From positions 1,821 to 65,820 of the IMG/VR virus record IMGVR_UViG_3300046000_006661: DNA of 64,000 nt; one strand, given 5' to 3'. Both the position numbers and the translations under genes were made by a program. Shown here in pieces: positions 4,100 through 59,375 of the stretch; within the stretch, counting starts at the first letter, position 1, and the number at the start of each line of letters is the position of its first letter. The DNA comes from a virus. Taxonomy: Duplodnaviria > Caudoviricetes. The notes under the pieces were generated by a model. It ran no database searches. It saw nothing but the letters and a program-made list of their open reading frames with translations, and was not told the DNA's origin.

Positions 4100-4105
4100 G
4101 TGTAA
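4100..4105 (+). promoter_or_regulatory. GTGTAA motif (putative phage-sigma promoter)
   Basis: 8 nt before start 4114; one of nine copies found at gene starts. Confidence 0.6.
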
Positions 4106-4113
4106 GATATAAT

Positions 4114-4761
4114 GTGTCCTATCTAAATCATAATATTCCCACGATTACTTGCCTACTACGCAATGAATATCTTTTTAATCACGAAAAAGGACATGGTGAG
4201 TATACTTCATGCGATGTCCATTCTGTAACGTCAATTGAGAAGAGAGTTCCTCTATTTGAAGCGTTCTTGACGAATGGAGTAAACTGGACTCGCAGACCTA
4301 TTACAGCATTCTGTTGGAAGCCTTGCGATCCAGTGCCATTGGAACATGCAATGTATTGGGATTGTTTTAGTCCTTATGTTGATGTTCAGGTTCGCACACG
4401 AATGAAAGGTCTGAGAGCTTTACTCATCACGCCGCAAAATACCAAAGAAGCTGGAGAGTATATGTTCACGCTTGATTGGGGATGGGAGAATAAGAGTATC
4501 TTGGACACCAATTTTTCTGAAACACCAGAACATAAATGCGCTCATGTATTCAAAATGGACAATGGTAACTTTTATGCTTACCCAAACAATCGCATTGTGT
4601 GGCACGATAATGCGTGGGTTGATAAGCCTATTGACAAAAATCCTGGATATAAGATCGACTTGACAGTATATAGCGTCGAAAATAAACGCACACTGTTTAC
4701 TGATTATAGCTACATGACAGAATTCACCACTCAACCAAAAGAAGAAAATGTCACTCACTAA
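4114..4761 (+). CDS. Conserved phage hypothetical protein
   Basis: 215-aa ORF with GTG start. MSYLN.NIP...R.EYL and HKCAH...NGNF.A.PNNR motifs recall a widespread aquatic-phage family. GTGTAA lies upstream. Confidence 0.7.
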   Translation: MSYLNHNIPTITCLLRNEYLFNHEKGHGEYTSCDVHSVTSIEKRVPLFEAFLTNGVNWTRRPITAFCWKPCDPVPLEHAMYWDCFSPYVDVQVRTRMKGLRALLITPQNTKEAGEYMFTLDWGWENKSILDTNFSETPEHKCAHVFKMDNGNFYAYPNNRIVWHDNAWVDKPIDKNPGYKIDLTVYSVENKRTLFTDYSYMTEFTTQPKEENVTH

Positions 4762-5158
4762 AAAAGCATTAACAAATCAAATATGCAATGGCATATTAGT
4801 AAAGCTAGTACCAAGCTCTATCGTTGGCGCAGGAGTTGGAGCTGTCACTCTTACTGAAATTCATAAAAATGAAGTTGTTTTCGCGCCAAAAGATTTGTGC
4901 TTTATCCGCTGGGGTGAAGTTAAAAATGTCGAGAATAACATCTTAGATCATATCAAAAAAGTCTGCAACAACAACGAATACGGTTTTTGGATTGATTGCC
5001 ACATTAACGATATTGGCGCAGCTTACTTCGTGAATCATTCTGATGAACCAAACTTAATTCACGACAGAGAGCGAGATATTTACTATGCCGCAAGAAAAAT
5101 TCAAATTGGAGAAGAGCTTACGTGTAAATATTCTTCAGACGAGATTGATTGGGTGTAA
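4748..5158 (+). CDS. SET-domain protein (putative lysine methyltransferase)
   Basis: SET motifs S.I.GAGVG, FVNHSDEPN and AARKIQIGEELTCKY. Confidence 0.85.
   Translation: MSLTKKALTNQICNGILVKLVPSSIVGAGVGAVTLTEIHKNEVVFAPKDLCFIRWGEVKNVENNILDHIKKVCNNNEYGFWIDCHINDIGAAYFVNHSDEPNLIHDRERDIYYAARKIQIGEELTCKYSSDEIDWV
5153..5158 (+). promoter_or_regulatory. GTGTAA motif
   Basis: 9 nt before ATG 5168; includes the SET gene stop codon. Confidence 0.55.
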
Positions 5159-5167
5159 TAATGTTTG

Positions 5168-5503
5168 ATGAGTGCTGCATATACAGGAATAACTATTGAA
5201 CAGAGAGGTTGCTATGATTTAACGCTTACTATTCAACGAAGCAATGGCATTTATAATTTAAGTGGAGTCACTCTCACTGGTCAAATTCGCAGAAGCTTTG
5301 ATGATGCTTTGCAAGCAGTTCTCACGACAGAAATTATTAGCATACCAAGTGGTATTGCAAAAATCAGTTTGAATTCGGCGCAAACGCTAAATCTCGATTT
5401 AGCGCCGTCTTATTGGGATTTATATGCAGACAAATCTGGCGAATGCCCAGATAAATTGATGCATGGTCCTGTTTATGTCATTAAATCTGCAACTAATCCA
5501 TGA
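5168..5503 (+). CDS. Small virion/fibre-attachment protein
   Basis: ITIEQ..YDLTLTI...NLSG.T..GQIR...G..KISL...QT..L...YWDL pattern, commonly found just before phage fibre genes. Overlaps the next gene by ATGA. Confidence 0.6.
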   Translation: MSAAYTGITIEQRGCYDLTLTIQRSNGIYNLSGVTLTGQIRRSFDDALQAVLTTEIISIPSGIAKISLNSAQTLNLDLAPSYWDLYADKSGECPDKLMHGPVYVIKSATNP

Positions 5504-8500
5504 GCGAATTTACAATAAATGTAGTTCAAGATCCATCGACAATTATTGATATAAATAATTCAAATCAAACTGTGTCTTTGAATATCCTTGAAGACCAGTA
5601 TAACTCTATTCAAGTAAATGATAACTCTAATGATGTATTATTGAATCCTTCTGTTTTTTACAATGGAATCAATATCGTCTATTTAAGTGGCGTAAGTGGT
5701 GAGCTTCTTCACAATACTTTTGGTGATTTGCAGGGGGGATCTACTGGTCAATATTATCATCTTTCATCTGGACAGTATTTCAATTTAATTACTGGCGCAG
5801 TTGTTAGACCAAATGAAACTGGTTCATTTTTAACTATAGGATCGGCAGATCTTCGCTATGTTGGTCTTGCTGGAGATCAAACAATTAGCGGAGCCAAAGC
5901 TTTTGTTTTACGACCAAGTGTTAATGGCACAGGGGTAATGCTTAGTGGAGAGGCTGTGAGTGTCAATACAGGAGAATTAACAGGCGCTTTTTACCCGCTT
6001 AATAGCAATCCAAGTAACTATATTACAGGAAGTGTTGTAAGACCTTCTGAAACTGGTGTATTTTATCCAACAAGTAACCCAAGTGGTTACATTACTGGAG
6101 TTGATCTTTCTGCTTACGTTACTGGCAATGTGGTAAGACCATCTGAAACGGGCAATTTTATCACCGCTTCGCAAACTGGAGCGTTTTACGCTGCCAGCAA
6201 CCCTTCGGGATTTATTACAGGTGTTAATTTATCTAACTATTCTACAATTGCTTTCTCGACTGGAATCAGTGGTTCTTTACAAAATCAAATAACCAACTTA
6301 AACAATCAAACGGGAAACTATTATCCAACAAGCAATCCTTCTGGATTTATTACAGGAGTCGATCTTTCATTCTCTGGCAACTATTATACCAAAAGCGAAT
6401 CTGAATCCAGATACGTTAATACAACTGGCGCGGAAACAATACTTGGAGACAAAACCTTTCATGATAAAGTATATATCAACAATTTGTATGTCACTGGTCT
6501 TGAAACAATCGTAAATACCACAAACACGAATATCGCAAGTAATTTCATCATGCTTAATTTGACTGGTGGGGCAGTTGATGGTGGTTTGTTTTTTGTAACT
6601 GGTGCTGGTTTGACTGGTATCAATGATTCTGGTGCGATTCTTGGTTTTGATCATTCAGATAAGTTTAAGTTTGGAATTGGAACTAGAGCTAGCGATCTAA
6701 GTGTTTTAGATACGATAGCTTCCGTTGAAGAAATGACGGGTATTAGTGGTAGCTTGCAAACCCAAATCAGCACCTTGTCTAATGCTACTGGTTCTTATGT
6801 TTTAAATTCTCAGACTGGTGCATTTTATTCTGTAAGTAATCCCTCTGGATTTATTACTGGAGTTGATCTATCTACTTATGCGACAATCACTAATCTCGCT
6901 GCGACAGGTTCGACGCTACAAACAAACATCAATAACCTAAGTGGCGTTTACGCGACCATAAGCAATCTTAACAGCACTGGAAGCTCTTTAGATTCTAAAA
7001 TTAGTTTACTTAGTGGTAGTTCTGTTTTGCTTTATGGTGATCAAACTATTTCTGGTGTTAAAACTTTCACTACAGGAGTAAATATTAGCGGAAATCTAAC
7101 AGTTGATACAAATACATTGTTTGTTGATAGTGTCAATAATAGAGTAGGTATCGGGACGACTACACCACAAAGTACTTTCATGCTTGATGTTAACGGTCAG
7201 GTTGTGATAAGAGGTGATAATTATCTAAATGGTAGCTTAAGAGAGTTTGGTGCGAATGCTTATAAACTCTCTAAAGCTGGAGATAGTTGGATTAATGGCG
7301 GTAATGTCGGCATTGGCACAACAACTCCAGCTGCCCCTCTTCACATTAATACATCACTGAGTGGTGTAGCCGTAAGAATAGGTCAAGACGGTACAGTAGG
7401 TAGATTAGAGTTTGGTAATGTTAATGTTGCATTAACTAGAATATCTAATCAACTAGCATTACAAGGGTTTGATGGCTTTACATTCGGTACTTCGAGTGGT
7501 GAAAGAATGAGAATTGATTCTTCTGGTAATGTCGGCATTGGCACATCATCTTTAATAGGCAAGTTAGATGTTGCTGGAAGTCTCACAACTACAACTCCTT
7601 CTAATGTTTTGGTTCTATCTCGACCTTACAATCCTGGAGTAGCATTTCATACCGCAGCATCATTTAGACTATCCAATCCTAATACAAACGTAAACAATAC
7701 TAGACTAGACATAGCGTTACAACAAGGAAACTCAGTATCACCAGTAACACCTGACACTACAGTTATGACGCTTCTAGGTGATGGTCGCGTTGGTATTGGA
7801 ACAACATCGCCGTTAACTCCATTACATACCTATACCGCAGGTAATAATTCACTAACGATTGAAGCTGGAGCTGGCGATTCTCAAGTTATGTTGAGATCCG
7901 CAGGATCGCTTAAATTTCTATTTGGCTATGAAGATTCTGATGATGGTTTTAGAATTTATAATTATGGAACATCAGCTACTTCACTTTTTGCAAAATCAAC
8001 AAATGGTTATATCGGCATTGGAACAGTTGCTCCAAATGAAAGATTAACTGTCAGTGGAAATGCAAATATAAGTGGAAATATAAGTGCCAACAATCTTGTT
8101 TATAATACAGGAAATCAAACCGTAAGTGGAATCAAAAACTTCCAATCTGTTCCATTGGTTAGTGGCGAAGAGGTTTACTATAAAAAGAACGTAGTATATT
8201 TTACTGGAAATAATTTTACTCCAGATGCGAATCTTGCAAGAACTTTTGAATATGTTTTAACTGGACTTGCAGGTGCAAGCGCCACTTTGAACGCGCCAAT
8301 CAATATGAATAATGGCGAAAATATTGTAATAAAAATAAAACAAAGTCCAAGCGGTAGCAACAATATCATATTTAATAGTAATTACAAATTCCCAGGAGGA
8401 GTTATTCCCTCTTTAACTTTGACACCAAGCAAAGCAGATATATATACAGCGCTTAAAATAGATTCTAATTTTTATTCGACTTATATTAAAGATTTTATTA

Positions 8501-8510: not shown

Positions 8511-11500
8511 ATGTTTTTACCATTTTCGAATTTAGACAAAAATACCACAACAGAAAACTTATTATATCCGAACGGTATAGTTTACGCTTCTTTGGTTAAA
8601 GATAATATTTTGTATCTTGGCGGATCTTTTAATTCACTTTGTGAAGTTTATCCAAGTTATGCAACATTAGATAATGAACTCAATATTTATCCAGCAGAAG
8701 TAGATACTAGAACATACGGAACAAGAAACAATAAAGGAGTTGTTGATACTACAGTAGATCAGTATGGAAATAGATATTTACTTGGTGGTTTTTCATCGGT
8801 GAATAATCTTTCTCAAGTGCCATTCCCAGATGGAAGAATTTCTCAATCCCCAGCGAATTTTTTATTTGGAAAAATAGGATTGGCGCAAATTACTCCTTCG
8901 GGTTTAAATACTGGACTTGGATTGAGTCTTGGCGGCGGAACAAGTTTGAGAAATATACAAAGCATTGGCTCTGGAATATTTTTCATGCATGGTGGAAATA
9001 ATATAGCTGTGTTTACAGGAAATGGAGCATTTAACGCTGCAAGTTATAATTATGGTTTATATAATCAGACTGTTATGAAATTTAATCTGCTTGAAAATCC
9101 TGCTAATAATTATAAATGGGCTTTAAGGGCAGACCAGCTTTGGACTCAAAATTTCTCAAACGCCACTAAAACAGATGGTCCTCCAATAGATTATTTTGCA
9201 GATACGGGAAATTTTTATCCTAATAAAACTGGAATTTGGATCGCTGGACAATTTACAACTGCGGCAGGAGTCGTTTGCAATCGCTTGGTATGTTTAGATT
9301 ATGTAAGCGGAACTTATATTACTGGATTAACCATAGCTAATGGTCCCAATGGTAATATAGATCAAATCTTAAAATATGGAGATAAAATTTATATCATGGG
9401 TCCCTTTACAACTTTTAGTGGAGTATCCAGAAATCGAATGGCGGCAATAAATCTGCCAAGTATGAGCTTATCTCCATTTAATCCCAATGCTAATAGCACC
9501 ATCAGACAAATGGCAACTGGAGCAAATGGTATGTATTTGGTGGGAGATTTCACTACTATTAATGGATCAGGTGGAAACTATCAAAACATCTGCAAAGTTG
9601 ATTACGAAAGTGGGCTTTTAATTACAGGCTTTAGACCAAAATTTAATTTTGGAAATAATCCTTGTGGAAGTATTGCTGAATTTGGTGATAAAGTTATTAT
9701 AAATTCGACAACACCTAACAATAGAAGCTGGACATATAAAATTGATAATCGTCCGACAAGTGGTCCTTTGATACCTGATTATCATAATCCAATAGCTTTT
9801 CCTATAGTAATAGATAATATTAGCGGTTTAACCACTTATACTGGTTTAGGCTATGGAGCTGGTACCACAAATGTATATCAAGGAGATCAAAGTTCTATTG
9901 CGGGTTTTAATGTGATTAAAAAAATAGATAATAAAATACATATTTTTGCCAAACAAGGTGGAGCTTTTGTGCAGAAAGTACCTAGAAACAATGCTTTTGC
10001 AGTCGATCTAAATACGAATAGAATAACAGAATGGAATCCAAATCTCCAAATGATCAACGCTGCTACTAGCGCATACTCTCTCGCTAATGATACGCAAGCA
10101 GTATATTGTATGCATCTTGATACGGGAGATAATACAATAACAATTGGCGGAAGATTTAATACTGTAAATGAATCTAACAACGCTTCTAAAATCAGAAATT
10201 CTATAGCTATTGTAGATGCCATCAGCGGTGGGTTAACAACAAATTTAAATGTTAATTTGGGAGTAAATTACGATGTTATAGCAATCGAAAAAAGTGGAAG
10301 TACGCTATTTTTGGGCGGAAACTTTATTTCTGGAACCGTGCCTAATAGATACAACAATTTTATAGGACTAGACATAAATACTAATGCGCCAACTCATGGA
10401 AGAAATTTTGAAATTAATAATAACCTTTTTGGTTTAAATTCTAATAAAACTTCCAGTTCAAAAGTTTCCTGCATGAAAAGGAAAGACAATCTTCTTTATG
10501 TCGGAGGAACTTTCGACACAGTAAGCGGAAATAATAGATATGGAATTTTTTGTTTAAATATACAAAATAACACAATAACAGATTTTAATTTAAACCTTGA
10601 CAGAGGCGATGTCAAAGCCATGGATATAGATCCATCTACTAATACTTTGTATATTGGTGGCGGATTTAGATCGGTATTGGGGCAAGAAAGAAATTATGGC
10701 GCAGCTATAAATTTAAATAATACGGGGTTGTTAGAATGGGACCCAGAACTGTCTAAAGAACCGACAAATCTTAAAGTTACTCCATCTGGAGTAGTAATAT
10801 GTGGTAGCTTTTCTAATGCTGGAGAAAGAAGAGCTGGGTTGGCATTTTTTAGCATAGAAAGCGGAAGTCTTTTAAAGCGAAATGTTCATTTAATGGGATC
10901 TACATATGGAGGAGTGTATACAACAGAAATACATAAAAAAACTTTATATGCAAACGGAAGTATAATCTCTGCAACTATACCTCAAAGCGTTGGATCACAA
11001 AATTTTACTCCACATGCGTTTCAAATGAGATATAATTTGGAGTCTGGTCATATTGTAACTGGATATGTTAACGATAGAGATGGCGCTCCACTTTGCATTA
11101 GGGGAGGGGGGCAGGTTTTATCTACATTTTTAGAATCTGGTTTTATGTATATGGGAGGATCATTTACAAATGTTCAAAACATGTCTCCAAGCACAAACAC
11201 AAATTCTACAGTTACAAGAAATAGGGTTGCTTGGTTTGATTTAAATAACCAAATGATTTCTGGAATAGACTATAATGTAAATAGTGACGTTCGAGCAATT
11301 AAAAGAAAAGATAATTTTCTTTACATAGGTGGATCATTTACATCTGTATTGGGTGTGGCAAGAAATCGTATAGCAAGAATAAATTTAAATACAAATACTC
11401 TTGACGCATGGAATCCAAATTCCAATAGCACTATTTATGATTTTCAATTTAGCGGCGATAAACTTTTTGCTGGTGGTGATTTTACAACTATGAGCGGATT

Positions 11501-12380
11501 AAGCAGAAATAGAGTTTGTAGATTTGATATTTCTTCAGCTTCAGGAGGAGTTCTTGAATCTTACAATCCACTGATTTTAAATGGCGGGATTAGAAAACTT
11601 TTAGTTTCGGGAGATAGTTTATACGCTGGGGGAACATTTGGTCAAGTTGGAGCAGCTGCAAATAATGTTTATGCTTATGCTGCTGCTTTTAATGCGAATA
11701 ATGCTAATCATATTACGACTTTTCGTCCTTTTTCTGGCTATACTGTTCCTACAACTTATTGGTTTGCAAATCGAGCCGCAGGAGGAACAGATGGAGTTAC
11801 ATCTTTTCACATGCATCCTAGTGGATTATTTATAGGTGGAGATTTTATATCAGTGGGGGGTTCTGGTGATGATGTTAGTCCAAGAGGAGTGTTTTTAGTT
11901 AACCCCGCCAGTGGAAACATATTAAGAAATTATGGAGGATTCGGTCAGCAAAGTATTTTTAAAGAAAGAATGCCTTTTGGTGCGGGAGATAGTCATCCTG
12001 GAAATATATGGGATATAAAAAGTACTGGAGATATGTTAATAGTTGGAGGTGAATTTGCCGATGTGCCAGAATATAGATATTCAAATTCCGCTTCTCCTCA
12101 AAACAGTTTCATTACTTTAAAAGATAAAATAACAGGAGTAAATATTGGCAATTTTGATTTTACAATAGATTCAGAATTGCCAGCATCTTTAAATGATGCG
12201 TTGAATAATACAAATTCAAATAGCTCGAACTTGTTTGTATATGATGCATCTTTTAATGAAGATAAAATATTTTTCCATGGATTATTTGGCGACATGAAAG
12301 ATCCAAATTTTAGATGTTCTATTGCCGCTATGGATTATAGCGGAAAGATTGATAAGAATTTTCAAGGTTTTGGAGTGTAA
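8511..12380 (+). CDS. Large beta-propeller repeat protein (putative receptor-binding/adhesin)
   Basis: Many LYxGGxFTxxxGxxRNRxA and WNPNxN repeats; directly follows the fibre gene. Confidence 0.75.
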   Translation: MFLPFSNLDKNTTTENLLYPNGIVYASLVKDNILYLGGSFNSLCEVYPSYATLDNELNIYPAEVDTRTYGTRNNKGVVDTTVDQYGNRYLLGGFSSVNNLSQVPFPDGRISQSPANFLFGKIGLAQITPSGLNTGLGLSLGGGTSLRNIQSIGSGIFFMHGGNNIAVFTGNGAFNAASYNYGLYNQTVMKFNLLENPANNYKWALRADQLWTQNFSNATKTDGPPIDYFADTGNFYPNKTGIWIAGQFTTAAGVVCNRLVCLDYVSGTYITGLTIANGPNGNIDQILKYGDKIYIMGPFTTFSGVSRNRMAAINLPSMSLSPFNPNANSTIRQMATGANGMYLVGDFTTINGSGGNYQNICKVDYESGLLITGFRPKFNFGNNPCGSIAEFGDKVIINSTTPNNRSWTYKIDNRPTSGPLIPDYHNPIAFPIVIDNISGLTTYTGLGYGAGTTNVYQGDQSSIAGFNVIKKIDNKIHIFAKQGGAFVQKVPRNNAFAVDLNTNRITEWNPNLQMINAATSAYSLANDTQAVYCMHLDTGDNTITIGGRFNTVNESNNASKIRNSIAIVDAISGGLTTNLNVNLGVNYDVIAIEKSGSTLFLGGNFISGTVPNRYNNFIGLDINTNAPTHGRNFEINNNLFGLNSNKTSSSKVSCMKRKDNLLYVGGTFDTVSGNNRYGIFCLNIQNNTITDFNLNLDRGDVKAMDIDPSTNTLYIGGGFRSVLGQERNYGAAINLNNTGLLEWDPELSKEPTNLKVTPSGVVICGSFSNAGERRAGLAFFSIESGSLLKRNVHLMGSTYGGVYTTEIHKKTLYANGSIISATIPQSVGSQNFTPHAFQMRYNLESGHIVTGYVNDRDGAPLCIRGGGQVLSTFLESGFMYMGGSFTNVQNMSPSTNTNSTVTRNRVAWFDLNNQMISGIDYNVNSDVRAIKRKDNFLYIGGSFTSVLGVARNRIARINLNTNTLDAWNPNSNSTIYDFQFSGDKLFAGGDFTTMSGLSRNRVCRFDISSASGGVLESYNPLILNGGIRKLLVSGDSLYAGGTFGQVGAAANNVYAYAAAFNANNANHITTFRPFSGYTVPTTYWFANRAAGGTDGVTSFHMHPSGLFIGGDFISVGGSGDDVSPRGVFLVNPASGNILRNYGGFGQQSIFKERMPFGAGDSHPGNIWDIKSTGDMLIVGGEFADVPEYRYSNSASPQNSFITLKDKITGVNIGNFDFTIDSELPASLNDALNNTNSNSSNLFVYDASFNEDKIFFHGLFGDMKDPNFRCSIAAMDYSGKIDKNFQGFGV
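12375..12380 (+). promoter_or_regulatory. GTGTAA motif
   Basis: 11 nt before ATG 12392. Confidence 0.5.
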
Positions 12381-13771: not shown

Positions 13772-13999
13772 TTATGCAGCGTAACCTGTGCTATTAGTAA
13801 AGACGAAATCAATTCCCGATTTATTGATCAGTCGCTCACGACGATTTTTGCGATCATAAATCGACACTTTTTGTGGAGTTTCACGACGAAACTGAGCGTT
13901 GATAACTTCTCCGTTTTTGAGATAAAGACCGAAGAAACGACCTTTTGCTTGTTTCATTGCGTCTACTGCCGATGTTTTTTTAGTTTGTTTGTTCTTCAT
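13772..13999 (-). CDS. Small basic Sm/Hfq-like protein
   Basis: GLYLKNGEVINAQ ... RLINKSGIDFV parallels Hfq SIYLVNGIKLQGQ ... QMVYKHAISTV. Has its own promoter and terminator. Confidence 0.55.
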   Translation of the reverse strand: MKNKQTKKTSAVDAMKQAKGRFFGLYLKNGEVINAQFRRETPQKVSIYDRKNRRERLINKSGIDFVFTNSTGYAA

Positions 14000-16312: not shown

Positions 16313-16318
16313 TTACAC
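16313..16318 (-). promoter_or_regulatory. GTGTAA motif
   Basis: 6-9 nt before the two tandem ATGs of the clp gene. Confidence 0.6.
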
Positions 16319-18879: not shown

Positions 18880-19505
18880 AGATCAATGTTAAAAATTTGT
18901 TTTTTGAAGATTTCGAATGTCATCTCTACATCGTAGAGGCTATCGTGAAGTTTTTTAGGGTCATGAGGAATGTCGTAGTATTTAAGCATGAATGCTTGAC
19001 TGGTTTTTAAACCCTTTTCGCGAATATGCAACATCTTATATTGCCATGATAAGAAATTTTCTTTGTCGGGCAAGATGTTCTTGAATATGGCAGTGGATAT
19101 TGATTTTGTGTCAATGACTCTTTTGACATAAGAGTGATCGCTATCCATGCCGATCATTTTGCGCCAGACGTTGATCATATAAACATCGAAGCCAAGAAAG
19201 TTCTGCCCAATAACTAAAAACGATGGATCATAAAGATACTTGGAAAGTTTTTCGAATACCTGAATAGGATGTTCAGCTTTTGAATAATAGTGGTCTTTGT
19301 CAAAGCCTGTAATTCTGGCAGCATCGGGAGATACATTTATACTGTCCCAGCGAATAAAGTGATCATGCTTGGAAACGATTGTATTGCCACGGCAAATAGT
19401 CCATGAAGCTTGCCACGGTCTGGAAGAAACGAGGTTGAGTCCCTCTGTCTCTGTATCTAAAACTATGTAGCTTTGATCTTTTTTGAATCTAAGTAGGTCG
19501 TTCAT
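18876..19505 (-). CDS. DEDDh 3'-5' exonuclease (epsilon-like)
   Basis: LDTETEG, GQN..GFD and HDSLYD motifs. Confidence 0.9.
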   Translation of the reverse strand: MNDLLRFKKDQSYIVLDTETEGLNLVSSRPWQASWTICRGNTIVSKHDHFIRWDSINVSPDAARITGFDKDHYYSKAEHPIQVFEKLSKYLYDPSFLVIGQNFLGFDVYMINVWRKMIGMDSDHSYVKRVIDTKSISTAIFKNILPDKENFLSWQYKMLHIREKGLKTSQAFMLKYYDIPHDPKKLHDSLYDVEMTFEIFKKQIFNIDL

Positions 19506-20269
19506 GGTTGGTTCATTATTGTTTTAAGTTTTTGTTCGTATTGTTCCCAGCAAAATTCATCGCTGCCAAAGTGTTCTAAGTTGGGGCAAGAGAGTGTCGC
19601 TTGCTTGCCAAATTTGCGGTCACTGAGAATCTTGTATGTCTGAAAGGCATCGCAGTCAGATTTGTGCTTATAAAAAATAGATTGCACTAATTGAATTGAT
19701 GCATTTGGCATGGTATCTCGCGCATAACGATGCACAGCTTTCTTGATTAGTTCATCAAATGGAAGTCCATTAGACTCGATGAAAAATACTGGATTGAGCG
19801 GTGCGATATTTGGAATGCAATTGCCCATAATCATTTGATTATTAAAAATAAATGAGTCATAAAAAGGAACAGCTAACATCAGATCGTCGCTCCAGTGAGA
19901 GATCAGATCGTCATTAGAGATAGCACCTTTTTGACTTGTATTGATAAAAGAATACAATTGATTCAAAGCTTTGCAACCAGCGTCATTTTTTGCAAAGGCA
20001 ATAAGCTTATGATTAGACTTGGTATTGGCATCAGAGTTGCAGCATACGAATTTGTAGCCGAAGTGTAATTGAATGCCTAGCTCTTTAGAAATTCTAAAGG
20101 CTTCGAAGAATCCAGTCATTGATTCCTCAACCAAGAAAAGGTTCTTCAAACCGCTTTCTTTAGCGATTGAAAAGATGCTGTCAGAACCATCCGAAGTTTC
20201 TTTGTCGGGGTGCTGTAGCGTGAGAATCGACTTGCCTATCGAGAAGTGAGATGTAAATATAGGAATCAT
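19502..20269 (-). CDS. Stand-alone PHP domain of Pol III alpha
   Basis: SHFSIGKSIL, MTGFFEAF..SKELGIQLHFG and KLIAFAKNDAGCKALNQL match the DnaE PHP domain. Confidence 0.85.
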   Translation of the reverse strand: MIPIFTSHFSIGKSILTLQHPDKETSDGSDSIFSIAKESGLKNLFLVEESMTGFFEAFRISKELGIQLHFGYKFVCCNSDANTKSNHKLIAFAKNDAGCKALNQLYSFINTSQKGAISNDDLISHWSDDLMLAVPFYDSFIFNNQMIMGNCIPNIAPLNPVFFIESNGLPFDELIKKAVHRYARDTMPNASIQLVQSIFYKHKSDCDAFQTYKILSDRKFGKQATLSCPNLEHFGSDEFCWEQYEQKLKTIMNQP

Positions 20270-20276
20270 CAAGAAG

Positions 20277-21318: not shown

Positions 21319-22385
21319 GAGGATTTTAATACTTTTCTTAGCATAGACAGGTCTTTTTCTTTAAATTTCTGCTTGTTTGCGGCTACAAAAGTAATCAATT
21401 CCTTGATGAATTGAGAACGGTCTACAGGAGTATTATACCATTTTTTTAGATCGACTCCAGAATTAAATGCGTCAGAGAAGTCATTGTGAGATTCTGGCGG
21501 CAAATTAATCTCGATACAATTAAAATCAAAATACGGCAAAAGATTTAACAATGTTTTGACGCATCCAAGATAGCCATGATTCTCGCCATCTAAGTCATTG
21601 TTGCCAGCGATTACGATTCTCTTAACAGGAAAAGAGCTGAGATACGATAGCATGATAGACTGACAACCGAGTCCAAAAGATACAAGATTGTTTTTGATGC
21701 CAGACTCAAAAAGAGCCATGCTATCGCCTATGCTTTCGACAATCACAACTTCTCCTGCTTTGCGAATGATTGAATCAACAGTTTCTTCTGCGGGAATATA
21801 TGCTGGATAAATCCAATTCTTTCTCTTACCAAGATGTTTCCACTTGGGAATTTTGTCATTACTATCGTCTATCTTTCTGCCGCTGAAGCCAATGATTTGC
21901 TTATACTCGTTGTAGATTGGGAATACCATACGTCGATACATCTTTCCAGATTGAGCGAGTCCAGTTTTGTAAAAGTTAAGAGTATCATCTGACAATCCCT
22001 TCTTCTTATAGAAAGAAAAATTGGGGAACAGATTGTTCAGCATTGATTCAGGGTAGATTTGGTCCATTTCGATTGTTTGTTTTTCAATATATACGTATTC
22101 TTCAGACTTGTTGATAGAAGATAAAATGTTTTTAATAGCTTGCTGGTCAGAGCCAAAAGTCAATTTGATTAGTCTCTCAAAGGGAAACTTCTGACTGCCT
22201 TGAGCATAGTCAGTCCATACTCCAGTGTTCTTGTAAACACAAATAGCAGTTTCATTGTCGCCGCCTCGATATAAAGCTTTTGTGCGCCAATGATTTCCGC
22301 AATCAATCAAGCGATACCCTATTTTTTCAAGGGTAGGCTTGATGTGAACGGGATCAATTGAAGTCTGGGATGTCATCTGATTCAT
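21315..22385 (-). CDS. dnaG: DNA primase (TOPRIM)
   Basis: RMVFPI...IIGFSGR, KWKH, IVESIGD and NNDLD motifs; adjacent to the helicase. Confidence 0.88.
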   Translation of the reverse strand: MNQMTSQTSIDPVHIKPTLEKIGYRLIDCGNHWRTKALYRGGDNETAICVYKNTGVWTDYAQGSQKFPFERLIKLTFGSDQQAIKNILSSINKSEEYVYIEKQTIEMDQIYPESMLNNLFPNFSFYKKKGLSDDTLNFYKTGLAQSGKMYRRMVFPIYNEYKQIIGFSGRKIDDSNDKIPKWKHLGKRKNWIYPAYIPAEETVDSIIRKAGEVVIVESIGDSMALFESGIKNNLVSFGLGCQSIMLSYLSSFPVKRIVIAGNNDLDGENHGYLGCVKTLLNLLPYFDFNCIEINLPPESHNDFSDAFNSGVDLKKWYNTPVDRSQFIKELITFVAANKQKFKEKDLSMLRKVLKSS

Positions 22386-23862
22386 TGTCTTCTAGGTCTG
22401 CGCCACCTTCCATTACGCGAGCAATGTCACGAAGGTCTCCTTTTTCGGTGATGCAAAAATTATGGAACTCAAGATTGATAAAGTTCTTCCGCAAATTATC
22501 GCCAATGCGAACTGGTTCAACAGCACCAGCAATGTCTTTGCCAAGGTGTCGAGCTTTTACATTGATAATTTTATGAGTGCCAAAGTTTCTTCCCTCTGTT
22601 TCAATTTCATCAGCAGTTTTATTGCGAAGAATAAACATGTGAGAGCAGAACTGTGTAATTCGGTCTGACAACGATACGATACTTTCATCATCAACAATGT
22701 TTGCTGACTGACGGTTGTTGGTAATACCACTTCTGTTAGATTGCACAGATGTAATCATGGGAATGACAGGCTCACCTTCATGAAGGATTTCTTTCTGAAG
22801 ACACTTCTTGAATTTGTCAACCATTTCGCCGACTACTTGCCATTCATTCTTGCCGCCGCCAGATTCTGAAGTTGTTTTGATATAGTCAAATGAGAAGATC
22901 ATTTTATTGCCACGACCAACTTTGCCATAGTAGAATCGCTTGAGAACCTTGATCATTGAATCTACATCCATGCCGCCGACATTGTAGTAATAAAACTTGA
23001 GGTTTTTTACTTTTGCCCAAGTAGCACGAACCTTTGCGACAACATCTGGTCCAGCTTTTCTCCAGTTTCCTGTTTCGAGAAGATGCATTTGAACTCCAGA
23101 AATAGCAGCGCACTGACGCATGATAAGCTCTTCTTTGCTCATCTCGCCATTGTCGAAGTGCAATACAGGAACATTGTATTTCATCGACACTTTAGTTGAG
23201 TAGTCCATGCACCATTGAGTCTTTCCTACGCCAGATCGAGCAACGATAACTGTGATGTTTCCAGGTCTTAGCAGTGATCCATAGATTTCATTGATTTTTT
23301 CATGAGGACCCATCATGCCGAATTCGGTAATGGGATTGTTGCCTCGCTCTTCAATCAATGCTTCCATTTCATCATAGATGTTTTCTGGCGTATCGTTTCC
23401 AATCTCATAAAGATTGATGCGCGAATTGTAGGAGTCATCTGCTGCTCCTATGATTTGACTATAGCTCGACTCTGGAGCAATAGACTTCATCTTGCGAGCA
23501 ATCTCTTGAGAGGATTCATATATCTCTCTACGAATCGTGAACTTCTTGAGTTCTTTTGCTGTCTTAATTAGATTGCCGTGCGGGACTTTGCGCATGGCAA
23601 GCGAGCGAATGTAATCAGCAGGATTGAGTCTATCTTCGAAAGATAATCCTAGTGACGATACTCGTTGTGCAACGATGACCTCATCAATCTGATCGCCAGC
23701 GTCGATCGCTTGTTTGATTACTGTAAAGATGGAACTGTGCAGCCCCGAATCTTCGCTGTAGAAATCCTTGTGGCTAATGAAATTGGAAATCTCACAATAG
23801 CTTTCGGGTTCTTTGATTAGTGCCGCTAGTAGTTGTTTTTCTAGTTCTAAGTTATAGATCAT
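22354..23862 (-). CDS. dnaB: Replicative DNA helicase
   Basis: ELEKQLLAAL N-domain; ARSGVGKT, GEMS, FDYIK and QSNR motifs. ATG 23862 chosen from the promoter position. Confidence 0.92.
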   Translation of the reverse strand: MIYNLELEKQLLAALIKEPESYCEISNFISHKDFYSEDSGLHSSIFTVIKQAIDAGDQIDEVIVAQRVSSLGLSFEDRLNPADYIRSLAMRKVPHGNLIKTAKELKKFTIRREIYESSQEIARKMKSIAPESSYSQIIGAADDSYNSRINLYEIGNDTPENIYDEMEALIEERGNNPITEFGMMGPHEKINEIYGSLLRPGNITVIVARSGVGKTQWCMDYSTKVSMKYNVPVLHFDNGEMSKEELIMRQCAAISGVQMHLLETGNWRKAGPDVVAKVRATWAKVKNLKFYYYNVGGMDVDSMIKVLKRFYYGKVGRGNKMIFSFDYIKTTSESGGGKNEWQVVGEMVDKFKKCLQKEILHEGEPVIPMITSVQSNRSGITNNRQSANIVDDESIVSLSDRITQFCSHMFILRNKTADEIETEGRNFGTHKIINVKARHLGKDIAGAVEPVRIGDNLRKNFINLEFHNFCITEKGDLRDIARVMEGGADLEDNESDDIPDFN

Positions 23863-23870
23863 CTGAGTTG

Positions 23871-23898
23871 AGGATAAGGTTTTTTTTACCGTTGTCAA
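23871..23898 (-). promoter_or_regulatory. Sigma70-type promoter
   Basis: TTGACA-16 nt-TATCCT, 8 nt before ATG 23862. Confidence 0.65.
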
Positions 23899-29816: not shown

Positions 29817-30559
29817 TTGTGTATAAAAAAAACGTCCTTTCTGTCTATTTCGTATTGCTTAAATACACTAGTAAAAGGCTCTCCGATAAGTATGTTTTTG
29901 TCGGCAAGATGTTTTCTAAAAACATATTGACCAACCCACATATCAGAATTAAACTCTGGTTCTCCAAGCCTTATTCTTGTTTCGCAAAATTGATTTAAAA
30001 ATAACATTATGTTGTAATAATTACCACCAATTACGCCCATGTTAATGAGTTCCCATCGACCTGCCATAATGGAGAATAAAACATAGTCATCCCATCCAAC
30101 TTGTTGATGAAGATCTAAATAAGCAAACTCATTGAGCATAATGCTGTCTTTGCATACAAATAAATCAGTATCAGAAAACTCCGCAATGATTTGAGAAGGA
30201 TCTTTGACAACTGTTACATCTGATCCATCAGTAAGAAATACGCTATCGAATTTGTTTTCTTCCAAGTAATTTCGATAGCAAAAAAATCTCCAATCATTAT
30301 TAGAGTAATCGGATGGAGATACTTTGACAAATTTAATCTTGTCAGTGGTATATTTACTCAAAAAGTCATCAGATAAATTGTCGTAAAAAATACGACCTTC
30401 GAGACCAAGTTTATCAACTGAACTATACCAAGGCTCAATATATTTAAAATCATTTTGCGCAACGCGACCGTCTGCTTGACGACCGATTACCCAAGGATCA
30501 TTAGGATCATTAGGATGTTGCTTTAGAGAGAAGTAAGAAGTAAAAATGACTGAACTCAC
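29813..30559 (-). CDS. Putative GT-A-fold glycosyltransferase
   Basis: RF..Y..YL....FDSVFLTDGSDV and INMGVIGG motifs; located in the glycan cluster. Confidence 0.6.
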   Translation of the reverse strand: MSSVIFTSYFSLKQHPNDPNDPWVIGRQADGRVAQNDFKYIEPWYSSVDKLGLEGRIFYDNLSDDFLSKYTTDKIKFVKVSPSDYSNNDWRFFCYRNYLEENKFDSVFLTDGSDVTVVKDPSQIIAEFSDTDLFVCKDSIMLNEFAYLDLHQQVGWDDYVLFSIMAGRWELINMGVIGGNYYNIMLFLNQFCETRIRLGEPEFNSDMWVGQYVFRKHLADKNILIGEPFTSVFKQYEIDRKDVFFIHK

Positions 30560-30572: not shown

Positions 30573-31547
30573 TTACAAATCAACTTCTTCAACCTGAATT
30601 TCTACATTTTGTAATTCTGGATATTCTGCAATAATTTCGTCGTATTCGACAAATTCAGAGTCATCCCAATCCCAATCCATTCCATCATCATCGCTCAAAA
30701 GGAATTCTTCTGATGCCATAGATGATACAGGCTTCTTGCTCCAGAATCGGCAGCTCCAGTAACGAGCTTTCCAGCGAGGACCAACATTGGTATCACACTG
30801 ATGTCGGGCGCGGAAGTTTTTTCTGCGATCTGGATCGTCTCTGCGAATCTCCATGTTAGGATCGCCGAACTTAACCATCACAGTGTTGCCTTTGTCATTT
30901 TTGACATAGACACCGAATTTTTTGTTGGAGCCACTTGGAAGACGGAACGGTTTGCCAAGAGTCTTCTTCTCAGCTTCGCTATAATCAATATCAAAGAGAT
31001 CAATGTCTCCTTCTTCATCCAAGTCTACATTAGCTTTCAAAAGGTCAATACGCGCCAAATCAAAGTCAATAGAATCAAACTCCCAAAATACATCTTCTGG
31101 CTTTTGTTCGTAATACAATTCTTCACCAGATGCCACATCTTGATCGGCAGCGCGATAGGAATTCTTTACTTTGCCGCCAGCTTGCATCTTCAAAAACATA
31201 TTGACGCGAGCCATTGCCCAGCTGTTTCTATTCTGTCCTGGTCTGTGAGACGAAGAAAATGCGCCTAAACCACGACGATAAACTTTCTTCAATTGAGAAA
31301 GCGTGACTTTTTTGCTGTGTTTTTCGTTATGGTTTTTGACTTTCTCTTGCAAAGAATTGACGATCTTTTCTGTAAATTCAATCTTTGCGCCATCTTTCGA
31401 TGCAGAACCTGCTGGATTTTTATCAGATCCTTTTTTGCGCTCGGACGGTTTAGCGGGGGTTTGCGCCCCGCTTTTTGGTCCAGATCTTTTAGCCGCTTCT
31501 GAATTTTCAAAGAGGTCTTTAATTTGCAAAGAGAAGTCTAATTCCAT
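30573..31547 (-). CDS. Two-domain basic/acidic protein (DUF5824-like plus DUF5754-like viral domains)
   Basis: LKKVYRRGLGAF..SHRP.....WAMARVN and VKFGDPNM.IRRD.P.RRKNFRARH..ARYWSC, joined by acidic linkers. Confidence 0.6.
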   Translation of the reverse strand: MELDFSLQIKDLFENSEAAKRSGPKSGAQTPAKPSERKKGSDKNPAGSASKDGAKIEFTEKIVNSLQEKVKNHNEKHSKKVTLSQLKKVYRRGLGAFSSSHRPGQNRNSWAMARVNMFLKMQAGGKVKNSYRAADQDVASGEELYYEQKPEDVFWEFDSIDFDLARIDLLKANVDLDEEGDIDLFDIDYSEAEKKTLGKPFRLPSGSNKKFGVYVKNDKGNTVMVKFGDPNMEIRRDDPDRRKNFRARHQCDTNVGPRWKARYWSCRFWSKKPVSSMASEEFLLSDDDGMDWDWDDSEFVEYDEIIAEYPELQNVEIQVEEVDL

Positions 31548-31556: not shown

Positions 31557-31562
31557 TTACAC
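31557..31562 (-). promoter_or_regulatory. GTGTAA motif
   Basis: 9 nt before ATG 31547, with an A-tract upstream. Confidence 0.6.
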
Positions 31563-34208: not shown

Positions 34209-34218
34209 AGCAATTTGT

Positions 34219-34224
34219 TTACAC
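34219..34224 (-). promoter_or_regulatory. GTGTAA motif
   Basis: 10 nt before the nrdB ATG. Confidence 0.6.
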
Positions 34225-34279
34225 GAACTATCGTCAAAATCGCGTCAATGTCAACAAGAAAAATTTTTTATTTTTTTTC

Positions 34280-34307
34280 TTGACAAGTTGTTTTTGGTCA
34301 TTATAAT
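34280..34307 (+). promoter_or_regulatory. Consensus sigma70 promoter firing into non-coding DNA
   Basis: TTGACA-16 nt-TATAAT with a T/A-rich upstream element. Confidence 0.7.
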
Positions 34308-34308
34308 G

Positions 34309-34560
34309 AGTACGTAGTACTTAGCGACCTAAGACAAAAGCTTTTGTAAAGTCTATAACGTATACGATAATCAATAAAGTATTGTATAGTACTACCACTC
34401 TACGCTTATCTATACGTATACGCTTGCCAATAACTTCACGCTTAGAACTAAAGCTTTGGCGCAGAGCAATTACTAAGCGTTATAATTAATTTAAATCGCC
34501 CGAAATAAGATAGACTCTCTTTGTTCATAAGAACAATACATTTTCTTTTTTGATTAAAAA
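34309..34560. other. Palindrome/repeat-rich non-coding region (candidate replication origin or ncRNA)
   Basis: 14-bp palindrome at 34334-34347; CGTATACG twice; TATACGTATA; ACGCTT at 18-bp spacing; AT-rich 34481-34496; lies at a divergent strand switch. Confidence 0.45.
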
Positions 34561-34576
34561 AATATCAACAAATTGC

Positions 34577-34605
34577 TTGACAAAGTAATAACTTTACGCT
34601 AAATT
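34577..34605 (+). promoter_or_regulatory. Sigma70-type promoter
   Basis: TTGACA-17 nt-TAAATT, 8 nt before ATG 34614. Confidence 0.7.
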
Positions 34606-34613
34606 TCACTCGT

Positions 34614-35407: not shown

Positions 35408-36006
35408 ACACTGAACCTAAAACAATTATTGGAATTTGCGGCAACGCTCGCTGCGGCAAAGATACTATGGCAGATCTAATTCAAGAAGTCTTGGCAGACA
35501 TTAATGTGAAAAGCAAGAAAATAAATCTTGCTGATTCTCTAAAAGATGAACTGCGAGACTTTGTTGACAAGACTCTTGGCATTGATGTGTACACCGACAA
35601 CACTGAAGAAAAAACAATCATCAGACCATTGTTGGTTACATGGGGAACGCATGTGCGCCGAAAGCTTGACAACAATGTTTGGATTAAACAAGCAGCGGAA
35701 AAGATGACTGAACAATGTGTCTATATCGTTCCAGATATTCGCTTTCCAAATGAGCTTGAGTGGTTGAGGCAGCATAAGAGCTATTGCATCTTTATTGATA
35801 GAATGGACGGCGAAAATATCGTTCCTCCAGCAAATGAAGAGGAGGCTGCTAACAATCCAATTCTCAAAGCTAGCTGCGACTTCCAGTTGACTTGGCAAAC
35901 TGTTGGCGCTGAAAATAAAAAAATGCTCAAGCAAGTTGCTATTGAAGTGCTTGAAAAAACCGTTGATGAAAAAGAAATTGAACTATGGACACAGACATTT
36001 CATTGA
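35404..36006 (+). CDS. Deoxynucleoside monophosphate kinase
   Basis: IIGICGNARCGKDT, ADSLK, R.LL..WGT and DIRFPNE motifs. Confidence 0.88.
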   Translation: MNTEPKTIIGICGNARCGKDTMADLIQEVLADINVKSKKINLADSLKDELRDFVDKTLGIDVYTDNTEEKTIIRPLLVTWGTHVRRKLDNNVWIKQAAEKMTEQCVYIVPDIRFPNELEWLRQHKSYCIFIDRMDGENIVPPANEEEAANNPILKASCDFQLTWQTVGAENKKMLKQVAIEVLEKTVDEKEIELWTQTFH

Positions 36007-36554
36007 TTGAAAAAATCAAACAAGAAAACGACAGCGAAAGCCTTCAGTGTCTTATCGACAAGCATTCTGGCATTTACATCGACACCGTTAATAAAACAAT
36101 CGCTAATGCAGCATTTTTTATTGATAAAAACGAAATCCTAGAGGAGAAAGATTATTACATCTATTCTGCTGCTTTAAAATTCGAACCAGACAGAAACGTC
36201 AAGTTCTCGACATATCTAGCAAATGAAACTCGCTGGCGCTGTTTAAATATCTATAATAAACAAAAGAAATTCCAACGCGAATCGCTTGACGATAACTTCG
36301 ATCAATGCTCTGACGGCTCAATCTTCTTGGAAGAAATACAGGCGCAGGAATCTCTTGAAATGATCATCAAGATGGCTAGCGAACAAAAAGATCAAAGAAT
36401 CAAAAAAATTATTGACATGCGCTATGGATTGACTTACAATAAGCCGCACGGATGGAAAGAAGTTGCGGAATCTTTGAAAATGTCCATACAGGGCTGCATA
36501 GATATTCACGACAAATTCATCAGCAAAATTAAAAAAATTATTCAAAATGCATAA
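35985..36554 (+). CDS. Phage sigma70-family RNA polymerase sigma factor
   Basis: Region 2 KFEPDRNVKFSTYL; region 4 IIDMRYGL....WKEVAESLKMS. Confidence 0.85.
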   Translation: MDTDISLIEKIKQENDSESLQCLIDKHSGIYIDTVNKTIANAAFFIDKNEILEEKDYYIYSAALKFEPDRNVKFSTYLANETRWRCLNIYNKQKKFQRESLDDNFDQCSDGSIFLEEIQAQESLEMIIKMASEQKDQRIKKIIDMRYGLTYNKPHGWKEVAESLKMSIQGCIDIHDKFISKIKKIIQNA

Positions 36555-52512: not shown

Positions 52513-52518
52513 TTACAC
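52513..52518 (-). promoter_or_regulatory. GTGTAA motif
   Basis: 22 nt before the tape measure ATG, with an SD in between. Confidence 0.55.
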
Positions 52519-54273: not shown

Positions 54274-54561
54274 TTATTTAAATATAAATGAAACAGAATA
54301 GTTTTCCATTTCTTCAGTAAAATTTCTTAGAGATTCGTTGCCGCCATCAAGTATTCTTTTACGAATCCAATTCAACTTATCGTTGGTAAAGTGATTTGCA
54401 GCAGTAATAATAACGTGATGTTCTTCTGGAATTAGCTCGTAAAGCTTATTATAATGAAAGTCGTGATCAGCTTTCATGTCCTCCAAAATTTTCAAGTAAT
54501 TCTTGAATAAAGCGGTGACTTCTTTCTTGTGCTGCTTTAATAAGTAGTGATTAGCGTCCAT
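54274..54561 (-). CDS. Hypothetical protein
   Basis: 95-aa ORF heading the chaperone operon. Confidence 0.65.
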   Translation of the reverse strand: MDANHYLLKQHKKEVTALFKNYLKILEDMKADHDFHYNKLYELIPEEHHVIITAANHFTNDKLNWIRKRILDGGNESLRNFTEEMENYSVSFIFK

Positions 54562-54588
54562 TTTATCTATTTTATAATAGAAAAAAAA

Positions 54589-54594
54589 GTGTAA
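54589..54594 (+). promoter_or_regulatory. GTGTAA motif
   Basis: 8 nt before ATG 54603, with an A-tract upstream. Confidence 0.6.
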
Positions 54595-54602
54595 ATTTCA
54601 AT

Positions 54603-55663: not shown

Positions 55664-55666
55664 TCA

Positions 55667-56515: not shown

Positions 56516-56568
56516 TTTTTTTTTCTCTTTTTTTTATTGTTGATGTAAACAAAGTAAAGTAAACACTT

Positions 56569-57752: not shown

Positions 57753-57773
57753 AAATTAAAAAAAAAAAAAAAA

Positions 57774-57805: not shown

Positions 57806-57844
57806 CAGAAGGGCTAAAAAAACAAAACAAAACAAAATAAAAAT

Positions 57845-58825: not shown

Positions 58826-58831
58826 ACCACT

Positions 58832-58860
58832 AAAAAGGCGCTGTGAAAACAGCGCCTTTT
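58832..58860. terminator. Bidirectional terminator
   Basis: AAAAGGCGCTGT-GAAA-ACAGCGCCTTTT between convergent genes. Confidence 0.9.
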
Positions 58861-58881
58861 CTGTTTCTACATCTTTCTTTT

Positions 58882-59361
58882 TTACAGAAAGCTATTGTAA
58901 TCAGCAATGGTTAATACGCCATCAGTTTCCAATCCGCCCAACTGTAAAGGCTCAGACTGATACATATTATACTGATGAGCGAGCTTGTCGATCTTAGTTT
59001 CACAATCATCCGACAAAGACTTGTATACTTTTGATACTTCGTTCTTGTTGGTGAATGTAACAGAGCTGTTGCCATCTCTTAGCGAAAGAATATCTGAGCC
59101 ATCTGTGTTTCCCACTAATCCTTTCAATGCATTGCGCGATTGTTTGCGGTAATAGTTCGCCATATACATCTCCTTATAGATAGCCTGAGACTCTTGATCT
59201 AGTGGAGCATTAACTCCGCTGTAAGATGTATTGATGCGCGTATTTAATAGCCCCAAATTAGCGCCAAGCCATGCTTCAATGTAAGAACGTGGCACAATGC
59301 CAGTATCACCATCGAATTCCGTCTGAAATATTTTGGTTGCTAAACCACTTAATGTACTCAT
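58882..59361 (-). CDS. Putative head-tail adaptor
   Basis: Helical N-half followed by SLRDGNSSVTF hairpin; downstream of the capsid genes; GTGTAA upstream. Confidence 0.55.
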   Translation of the reverse strand: MSTLSGLATKIFQTEFDGDTGIVPRSYIEAWLGANLGLLNTRINTSYSGVNAPLDQESQAIYKEMYMANYYRKQSRNALKGLVGNTDGSDILSLRDGNSSVTFTNKNEVSKVYKSLSDDCETKIDKLAHQYNMYQSEPLQLGGLETDGVLTIADYNSFL

Positions 59362-59369
59362 GTATTCTT

Positions 59370-59375
59370 TTACAC
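59370..59375 (-). promoter_or_regulatory. GTGTAA motif
   Basis: 8 nt before ATG 59361. Confidence 0.6.

Follow-up and report, generated by a model that had tools for sequence, protein, structure and literature searches.

The hexamer GTGTAA stands a short distance upstream of nine gene starts in a stretch of DNA from an uncultured freshwater tailed phage, 64,000 nt long (the window), which comprises bases 1821-65820 of the 65.8-kb viral contig IMGVR_UViG_3300046000_006661 and has a G+C content of 38%. With a probability of about 0.72, we regard this box as the -10-like single element of a phage-specific promoter, which would be used by the host core RNA polymerase together with a phage sigma factor and would give near-leaderless mRNAs. 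The likeliest sigma factor is the 189-aa product of the open reading frame (ORF) 35985..36554, referred to here as sigma-1. That the box acts on the DNA as a promoter we infer from its enrichment, its spacing, its conservation and its strand-specific depletion within genes.

Both strands of the window together contain 17 copies of GTGTAA, while 22.7 +/- 5.0 are expected, and the word as a whole is therefore not in excess. Nine of the 17 copies, however, lie in sense orientation at most 30 nt upstream of one of 57 hand-picked gene starts, with gaps of 6-22 nt (the gap being the number of nucleotides that separate the final A of the box from the start codon). This makes GTGTAA the most enriched upstream hexamer of all in the window (hypergeometric p=5.8e-14). 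In 5000 shuffles of the 30-nt upstream regions, a mean of 0.43 copies and a maximum of 5 copies were obtained. The other eight copies are intragenic, three in sense and five in antisense orientation. At two sites, 5156-5158 and 12378-12380, the TAA of the box doubles as the stop of the gene before it; the first of these genes is the SET-domain gene 4748..5158. The box at 5153-5158, which precedes the gene of a 112-aa protein, is conserved in all three genomes having the family.

The same placement was found in related phages. G001 is a complete IMG/VR relative of 133,831 bp with a 95-bp terminal repeat and is 91-94% identical to the window over shared segments. G003, G004 and G005 are divergent near-complete relatives of 112-140 kb, whose sigma-1 proteins are 51-56% identical to that of the window. 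In each of these four related genomes GTGTAA is the top upstream hexamer (p 2e-13 to 2e-25). In G001, 18 of 62 copies lie at most 30 nt before the starts of 195 ORFs (p=4e-17); the gap is 6-10 nt at 17 of these sites and 22 nt at the tape measure gene. A more distant set comprised 44 loci, kept of 73 after near-duplicate removal (665.5 kb, 699 ORFs; sigma-1 43-61% identical). Here, 45 of 198 copies are situated 5-12 nt before starts, with about 0.8 expected by position, and seven permuted control words reached 0-4. A preliminary description of the window, made from the sequence alone, had listed nine sites and had named positional enrichment as a check. All nine are present with the spacing it gave, the check was positive in the window as well as in the four related genomes, and the background copies that it mentioned inside genes do exist.

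The box is retained while its surroundings change. Seven gene families (tape measure, portal-like protein, PhoH and four others) have it in all four related genomes amid unrelated flanks. The upstream regions of nrdB likewise keep the box within divergent surroundings, as seen in the further loci L002, L005 and L006/L007 compared at this place and in many distant loci. Among 65 sites of the four related genomes, the gap is 8 nt at 25 sites, 9 nt at 13 and 10 nt at 11, that is 8-10 nt at 49 of 65. All six bases are invariant, and one-mismatch variants at 5-12 nt in G001 showed no enrichment, each being seen once. The flanks are A+T-rich, with an A preceding the box in 42 of the 65 sites, and box-bearing genes start with ATG in 55 of 60 cases compared to 506 of 681 ORFs overall. 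Three details of the preliminary description concerned the surroundings and variants of the box. A T located 6 nt after it is present at seven of the nine window sites but only at 24 of the 65 sites in the related genomes, which equals background. The TTGTAA variant before the gene starting at 30559 had to be discarded, as its TAA (30578-30573) is the stop codon of ORF 30573..31547 and variants are not enriched. The ATGTAA variant at 56543 is partly upheld: [AC]TGTAA is kept 20-33 nt upstream of the orthologs of the 56569 gene in all four genomes, with differing flanks, and could represent a weak form of the box, albeit one lacking statistical backing. A second motif, CTAATTTWAAC before capsid-region genes, gave 5 matches with 5.7 expected and was dropped.

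The position of the box agrees with that of ordinary promoters in these phages. For the TTGACA-N16-18-TAnnnT promoters of G001, the gap from the end of the -10 box to the ATG is 9 nt in 9 of 26 cases and 8 nt in 5 of 26, and in the window the -10 boxes of sigma70-type promoters lie 4-9 nt before the starts at 13999, 20272, 25775 and 34614. After the conserved terminator behind the capsid gene, TATAAT followed by 5 nt and ATG was found in three of the four related genomes, and TACCAT with the same 5 nt in G001 and the window. Since GTGTAA and the sigma70-type -10 boxes share their gap to the start codon, both imply transcription starts at the ATG or a few bases before it. Nothing conserved was found at -35 upstream of the box at the 65 sites in the four related genomes.

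A Shine-Dalgarno (SD)-like 4-mer occurs in only 1 of 96 spacers at gaps of 5-12 nt but in 17 of 29 at gaps of 13-30 nt; the baseline is 143 of 1191 genes without a box. The typical arrangement is thus a box 5-10 nt before the start and no SD sequence in between, as expected for leaderless messages. In the tape measure gene, by contrast, the box lies 21-26 nt upstream and is accompanied by an SD-like tract in all four related genomes. The AAGGAG before the tape measure gene of the window is the only good SD sequence among the 57 upstream regions.

The box could also act on the mRNA, namely as a translation signal that replaces the SD sequence by providing a site for the ribosome or a factor. 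This we consider improbable. Such a signal would be in line with the gap fixed at 8-10 nt, with the exclusive sense orientation of the sites and with the sparse use of SD sequences in these phages. There is also a precedent: the start-associated sequence of Cluster K mycobacteriophages is a 13-bp element containing AGGAG, is located 3-7 bp from the start and has a proposed role in translation (PMC3203893). It resembles the GTGTAA box in being a short asymmetric repeat placed in one orientation before many starts, in its conservation across subclusters, in an occasional overlap with the upstream stop codon and in its ATG preference (80 of 93; PMC3203893). Unlike that element, GTGTAA contains no SD core, and it shows promoter-like geometry and strand asymmetry. 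The tape measure orthologs with their box at 21-26 nt indicate that no fixed distance to the ATG is needed, and the distance is not constant among the portal-like orthologs either (9-14 nt). Further arguments against a translation signal are the coincidence with the position of sigma70-type -10 boxes, the invariance of all six bases, weaker variants not being enriched, and the small share of genes, about a tenth (18 of 195 in G001), that have the box. By inspection GTGTAA shows no complementarity to the anti-SD sequence CCUCC, which may not be that of the host. Pairing of GUGUA with the conserved 1400 region of the 16S rRNA would be sterically implausible and was set aside.

The distribution of the box within genes also bears on its level of action. 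In the coding sequences of the four related genomes, antisense GTGTAA occurs 49 times, whereas synonymous-codon shuffles lead one to expect 92 copies (z=-5.8, rank 44 of 3919 hexamers). No such depletion is seen for sense copies (79 versus 68 expected, z=+1.7), and the direction of the antisense depletion is the same in all five genomes. A depletion confined to the antisense strand fits a promoter, because firing against genes would be selected against, whereas a signal at the RNA level predicts the opposite asymmetry. The location of some boxes points in the same direction. The 41-nt spacer between the divergent genes at 54561 and 54603 holds both a box and a sigma70-type promoter back to back with it, and a similar case with a 31-nt spacer exists in G001. 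In spacers of 31-41 nt between divergent genes a promoter is required.

Phages also act on initiation regions by other means; the T4 proteins RegB and RegA, an endonuclease and a translational repressor, respectively, are examples. A short, strictly conserved word beside start codons could accordingly be an RNA-processing site or a binding site of a phage repressor or activator and not a promoter. We regard this as very unlikely, given the strand-specific depletion, the geometry shared with -10 boxes and the presence of the box in divergent spacers which require a promoter; moreover, a non-palindromic word of 6 nt is short for a DNA-binding regulator.

If the box is a promoter element, it should have a reader, and sigma-1 is the best candidate. 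The protein matches the Pfam model Sigma70_r2 at E=0.12 only and PHROG 351 weakly, and 18 of the 21 NCBIfam matches listed are sigma models (best E=1.6e-6), all of them below the curated cut-offs. With a profile of the sigma-1 family all 42 of 42 matches in the PDB are sigma factors (best 4.7e-5). The AlphaFold model (predicted local distance difference test score, pLDDT, 82) contains a C-terminal helical domain, and the best 50 Foldseek matches of this model are all sigma factors. Their template modelling (TM) scores are low, 0.3-0.4, because the two domains of sigma-1 are freely oriented. Judged from these profiles and the model, ORF 35985-36554 is a true but divergent sigma factor with predicted core binding and initiation.

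Both DNA-contacting regions can be recognised in sigma-1. In region 2 the profile aligns KFSTYLANETRW of sigma-1 with KFSTYATWWIRQ of RpoD. Residues 110-184 align to region 4 of RpoD. In the alignment to RpoD, KFSTYATWWIRQAITR corresponds to KFSTYLANETRWRCLN, and VTRERIRQIE of RpoD is replaced by MSIQGCIDIH, so that the non-canonical region 4 noted in the preliminary description is borne out. Given the roles of these residues in sigma70, sigma-1 has other residues in place of the tryptophan pair, of the -12 contacts and of the basic -35 contacts. Such changes would suit a -10-like specificity that is new, and a promoter without a -35 box. Across the family (at least 102 proteins; 405 viral contigs), the putative -10-recognition helix KFSTYLANETRW-CLN hardly varies. 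The operon containing sigma-1 is headed by a TTGACA-N17-TAAATT promoter, and sigma-1 could therefore be made early.

The related phages encode a second sigma factor, an ECF-like (extracytoplasmic function) protein of 229 aa found in G001 at 77032-77721 (L011:17032-17721), outside the window. It matches ECF sigma models (E=9e-8) and has counterparts of 52-63% identity in G003, G004 and G005; an hhalign comparison with the sigma-1 family showed no similarity. Its gene adjoins the portal-like/packaging module and lies behind an intrinsic terminator and a sigma70-like promoter. Regions 2 and 4 of the protein are separated by a Cys-rich insert, and its gene is preceded by a small zinc-ribbon-like gene.

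The box could thus be a promoter read by this second sigma factor, by an alternative sigma of the host or by the host primary sigma retargeted by the phage. We think this unlikely, yet it is the strongest of the alternatives. The second sigma occurs in each of the four related genomes that were searched, matches ECF models and is encoded next to packaging genes, and a single phage-specific motif was found for two phage sigmas. Neither the cascade logic nor co-occurrence is decisive for the reader, since both sigma genes follow sigma70-like promoters and the four related genomes each have both. A -35 element is normally required by ECF sigmas, and none was found at the GTGTAA sites; the missing -35 box favours sigma-1. 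Region 4.2 of sigma-1 lacks basic residues aligned to the -35 contacts of RpoD, which fits a one-box promoter, and its putative -10 helix hardly varies within a family whose box is invariant. For a host sigma retargeted by the phage, the late promoters of Thermus phages provide a model, in which a class-specific -10 box is used without a phage sigma (10.64898/2026.04.20.719267).

Several observations weigh against the promoter reading or against sigma-1 as its reader. A fixed gap of 8-10 nt is also expected of a ribosome-binding or other RNA-level signal. The 17 SD-like cases at large gaps come from three gene families only and hence represent few independent events. One-mismatch neighbours of GTGTAA partly share the antisense depletion (ratio of observed to expected mostly 0.7-0.9 versus 0.53 for the exact word), so that the effect, though real, is moderate. 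Each genome has about 40 intragenic copies to which no obvious role can be assigned, which suggests that the six bases alone may not suffice, and the used copies are embedded in flanks of 80% A+T as compared to 64% for the other copies. Intrinsic terminators were not found immediately upstream of the window sites, and no transcript 5' end was seen in four metatranscriptome runs, the assembled contigs of which cover shares of 0.06-0.15 of the region and gave no transcription starts. Finally, the second sigma is as conserved in the relatives as sigma-1 and could be the reader instead.

On balance, the core of the earlier proposal of a single-element, near-leaderless promoter with a phage sigma is supported: the -10 geometry, the lack of a -35 element, the SD exception at the tape measure gene, the antisense depletion and the conservation in the family all agree with it. 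Which sigma reads the box is less certain in view of the second factor. We propose that the host core RNA polymerase with a phage-encoded sigma would recognise GTGTAA alone, in the absence of a -35 partner. The likeliest reader would be sigma-1, in whose region 4.2 the residues at RpoD's -35 contact positions are replaced. Transcription would start a few bases past the box, at the start codon or 1-4 nt before it. With such start positions most of the mRNAs would have little or no leader and could do without an SD sequence, while the distant box of the tape measure gene would give a short leader carrying the SD-like tract. The sigma70-type TTGACA-N17-TAnnnT promoters of the same geometry would drive the early genes and the sigma-1 operon. 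The earlier designation as a late promoter is only partly adequate. It fits the tail, portal-like and lysis genes, but boxes also precede nrdB, the Clp ATPase gene, the glycosyltransferase operon and, in relatives, PhoH, and the GTGTAA class would therefore cover middle as well as late genes.

One-box promoters are known from T4, whose late promoters TATAAATA consist of a -10 element only and are read by the divergent sigma gp55 together with gp33 and the sliding clamp. The T4 factor gp55 comprises region 2 only and needs gp33 and gp45, and T4 late mRNAs have leaders with SD sequences. The one-box late promoter and the divergent phage sigma are thus common to both systems, whereas sigma-1 has regions 2 and 4.

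In Escherichia phage phiEco32, promoters of the middle and late classes have the element tAATGTAtA, are used by the host core with the phage sigma gp36 and start 6-8 bp downstream (PMC8948821). Common to both systems are a single highly conserved element without a -35 box, TGTA within the box and the placement before middle and late genes. They differ in the box sequence and in the sigma factor, as gp36 is stated there to have no homology to region 4 while sigma-1 keeps a region-4-like domain (PMC8948821). The word leaderless is absent from PMC8948821, whereas the GTGTAA box abuts the start codon. A tblastn search with sigma-1 against 50,697 phage records gave nothing at E<=1e-3, and together with the retained region 4 this indicates that sigma-1 is not of the gp36 lineage. 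Judged by analogy, the phiEco32 class is the closest working analogue of the GTGTAA system. The late promoters of Salmonella phage 7-11, described in the same source, are bipartite (GTAAtg-N16-aCTA) and read by the sigma gp47 (PMC8948821). There, too, a phage sigma steers the host core to late genes, and one of the elements contains GTAA; no second element was found for GTGTAA.

The Thermus phages Lalka27a and YS40 are a precedent, as they make leaderless messages from promoters whose -10 box differs between classes. Most of their transcripts start with the A or G of the initiation codon, a few nucleotides after the -10 box, and the late class is marked by a separate box, TAGGGT; rather than a phage sigma, the authors suggest a phage factor acting by modification of the host polymerase (10.64898/2026.04.20.719267). 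The frame TANNNT is kept in these boxes, but GTGTAA does not fit it, as a T at the third base after the box is found at 24 of 65 sites, which is background. Among the papers listed by full-text searches, which did not cover subscription journals, none describes a GTGTAA phage promoter. The type of control is already known from T4, phiEco32 and the Thermus phages; what is new is the specificity, that is the sequence of the box, and not the principle.

The individual sites are compiled in Table 1 together with the sigma-1 gene and two sigma70-type promoters.

Table 1. GTGTAA boxes, possible and rejected variants, the sigma-1 gene and sigma70-type promoters in the window
Feature	Position	Strand	Remarks
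GTGTAA box	4100..4105	+	8 nt before GTG 4114 (215-aa protein, PHROG 3704 'ferredoxin'); divergent genes with a 53-nt spacer; box and spacing kept in G001
GTGTAA box	5153..5158	+	TTG 5165 at 6 nt, ATG 5168 at 9 nt; 112-aa protein heading tail-fibre-like genes
GTGTAA box	12375..12380	+	11 nt before ATG 12392 (79-aa ORF); TAA is stop of ORF 8511..12380
GTGTAA box	16313..16318	-	6 nt before ATG 16306 (Clp-type AAA+ ATPase, 764 aa); in 3/4 genomes, 5-6 nt
GTGTAA box	31557..31562	-	9 nt before ATG 31547 (DUF5824 protein, head of glycosyltransferase operon); in 3/4 genomes
GTGTAA box	34219..34224	-	10 nt before ATG 34208 (ribonucleotide reductase small subunit, nrdB)
GTGTAA box	52513..52518	-	22 nt before ATG 52490 (tape measure, 3724 aa); AAGGAG in spacer
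GTGTAA box	54589..54594	+	8 nt before ATG 54603 (152-aa protein); 41-nt spacer; in 4/4 genomes, 8-10 nt
GTGTAA box	59370..59375	-	8 nt before ATG 59361 (159-aa protein); directly after stop of ORF 59376..59831; in 4/4 genomes, 8-9 nt
ATGTAA, possible weak variant	56543..56548	+	20 nt before ATG 56569 (371-aa protein, 'tube' gene of the preliminary description)
TTGTAA, rejected variant	30573..30578	-	TAA is stop codon of ORF 30573..31547
Sigma-1, divergent sigma70-family factor, candidate box reader	35985..36554	+	Regions 2 and 4 present; residues aligned with RpoD -10/-35 contacts replaced
Sigma70-type promoter TTGACA-N17-TAAATT	34577..34605	+	8 nt before ATG 34614; heads operon containing sigma-1
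Sigma70-type promoter TTGAAA-N16-TATTAT	54574..54601	-	12 nt before ATG of divergent gene 54274..54561

Some of the surroundings deserve mention. Immediately upstream of the nrdB box lies a sigma70-type promoter, TTGACA-N16-GATAGT (34254-34227). The spacer 4063-4113 between the divergent genes 3578..4060 and 4114..4761 contains a 15-bp palindrome, GTAGAAATTTTCTAC, just upstream of the box; it is kept in G001 and is a possible operator. A perfect consensus promoter (TTGACA-N16-TATAAT, 12 of 12 positions) is present at 34280-34307 on the plus strand within the 405-nt spacer 34209-34613 and is not followed by any ORF of at least 60 aa. A small RNA might be transcribed from it, or it may belong to an origin or a regulatory region. 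For the minus-strand genes 22354-23898 and 19502-20272, the longest ORFs begin at TTG codons situated within the TTGACA of a sigma70-type promoter or immediately after its -10 box, and the true starts are probably the next ATG codons.

Outside the window, the early region of small genes in G001 (64-75 kb; L011:4000-15000) has about 15 TTGACA-N17-TAnnnT promoters, which are followed by a C-rich stretch of 9 nt (ttccccgcc or ttccccgtc) and then the ATG. Several of them use TACACT as -10 box, which explains the antisense GTGTAA copies in this region. The region also contains a repeat of about 60 nt with a GACCCC-N4-GGGGTC hairpin in at least four copies. The complete relative (G001; loci L009, L010 and L011) has eight tRNA genes (Met x2, Glu, Thr, Tyr, Pro, Gln, Arg), and two seemingly intergenic GTGTAA copies of G001 fall within tRNA genes. 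The sole match of an Rfam scan was the abiF RNA motif at 59874-59910 on the minus strand (42.1 bits; gathering score 37), which is unrelated to the box. The 120-nt gap in which it is situated follows the putative major capsid gene and in the relatives holds a conserved intrinsic terminator.

With regard to word usage, the palindromes CTGCAG, GAGCTC, ACGCGT and GCGCGC do not occur at all in the coding sequences predicted for the four related genomes, although 28-110 occurrences are expected from synonymous shuffles, and CAGCTG, ATCGAT and CTTAAG are strongly depleted there. This suggests the avoidance of restriction sites. The SD-like words TAAGGA, CTAAGG and CTGAGG are avoided within the genes of the same genomes.

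The gene content of the window is that of a tailed phage, with the 3724-aa tape measure protein and tail-fibre-like proteins. Replication genes code for a DnaE-type polymerase, DnaB, a primase and a RecA/UvsX-like protein, and class I ribonucleotide reductase, the Clp-type ATPase and a block of glycosyltransferases are also encoded. In searches for a cultured relative, none was found: the tape measure gene gave zero megablast matches, the DnaE protein only distant matches (<32% identity), and the portal-like protein a sole match to Bacillus phage Stahl (23.5%). Phages with sigma-1 are represented by at least 405 IMG/VR contigs. Concerning the host, the closest cellular homologs of the GDP-mannose dehydratase are spread across unrelated taxa. 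Relatives of sigma-1 occur on contigs binned into nine metagenome-assembled genomes (Bacteroidota 5, Verrucomicrobiota 2, Halobacteriovorax and Pseudomonadales), the binning of phage contigs being unreliable. There is a weak hint of Flavobacteriia.

A wider and more tentative possibility, which we would not call probable, is that this family of 110-140-kb aquatic phages runs nearly its whole programme on leaderless or near-leaderless mRNAs. Host-type and GTGTAA promoters would then both be placed 5-10 nt before the starts, region 4 of sigma-1 would have been kept for core binding and not for DNA, and the second sigma would be a further step of the cascade. If so, the host would be one that routinely translates leaderless messages and uses few SD sequences.

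The GTGTAA box would provide a simple key to the transcription programme of abundant uncultured freshwater and marine phages. The six-base word would predict operon heads and their temporal class from the sequence, and would improve the calling of start codons in genomes poor in SD sequences. The box and its sigma would also represent a compact orthogonal sigma-promoter pair for study. If sigma-1 is indeed the reader, it would be a natural sigma factor that keeps region 4 and yet works from a -10-like box alone.

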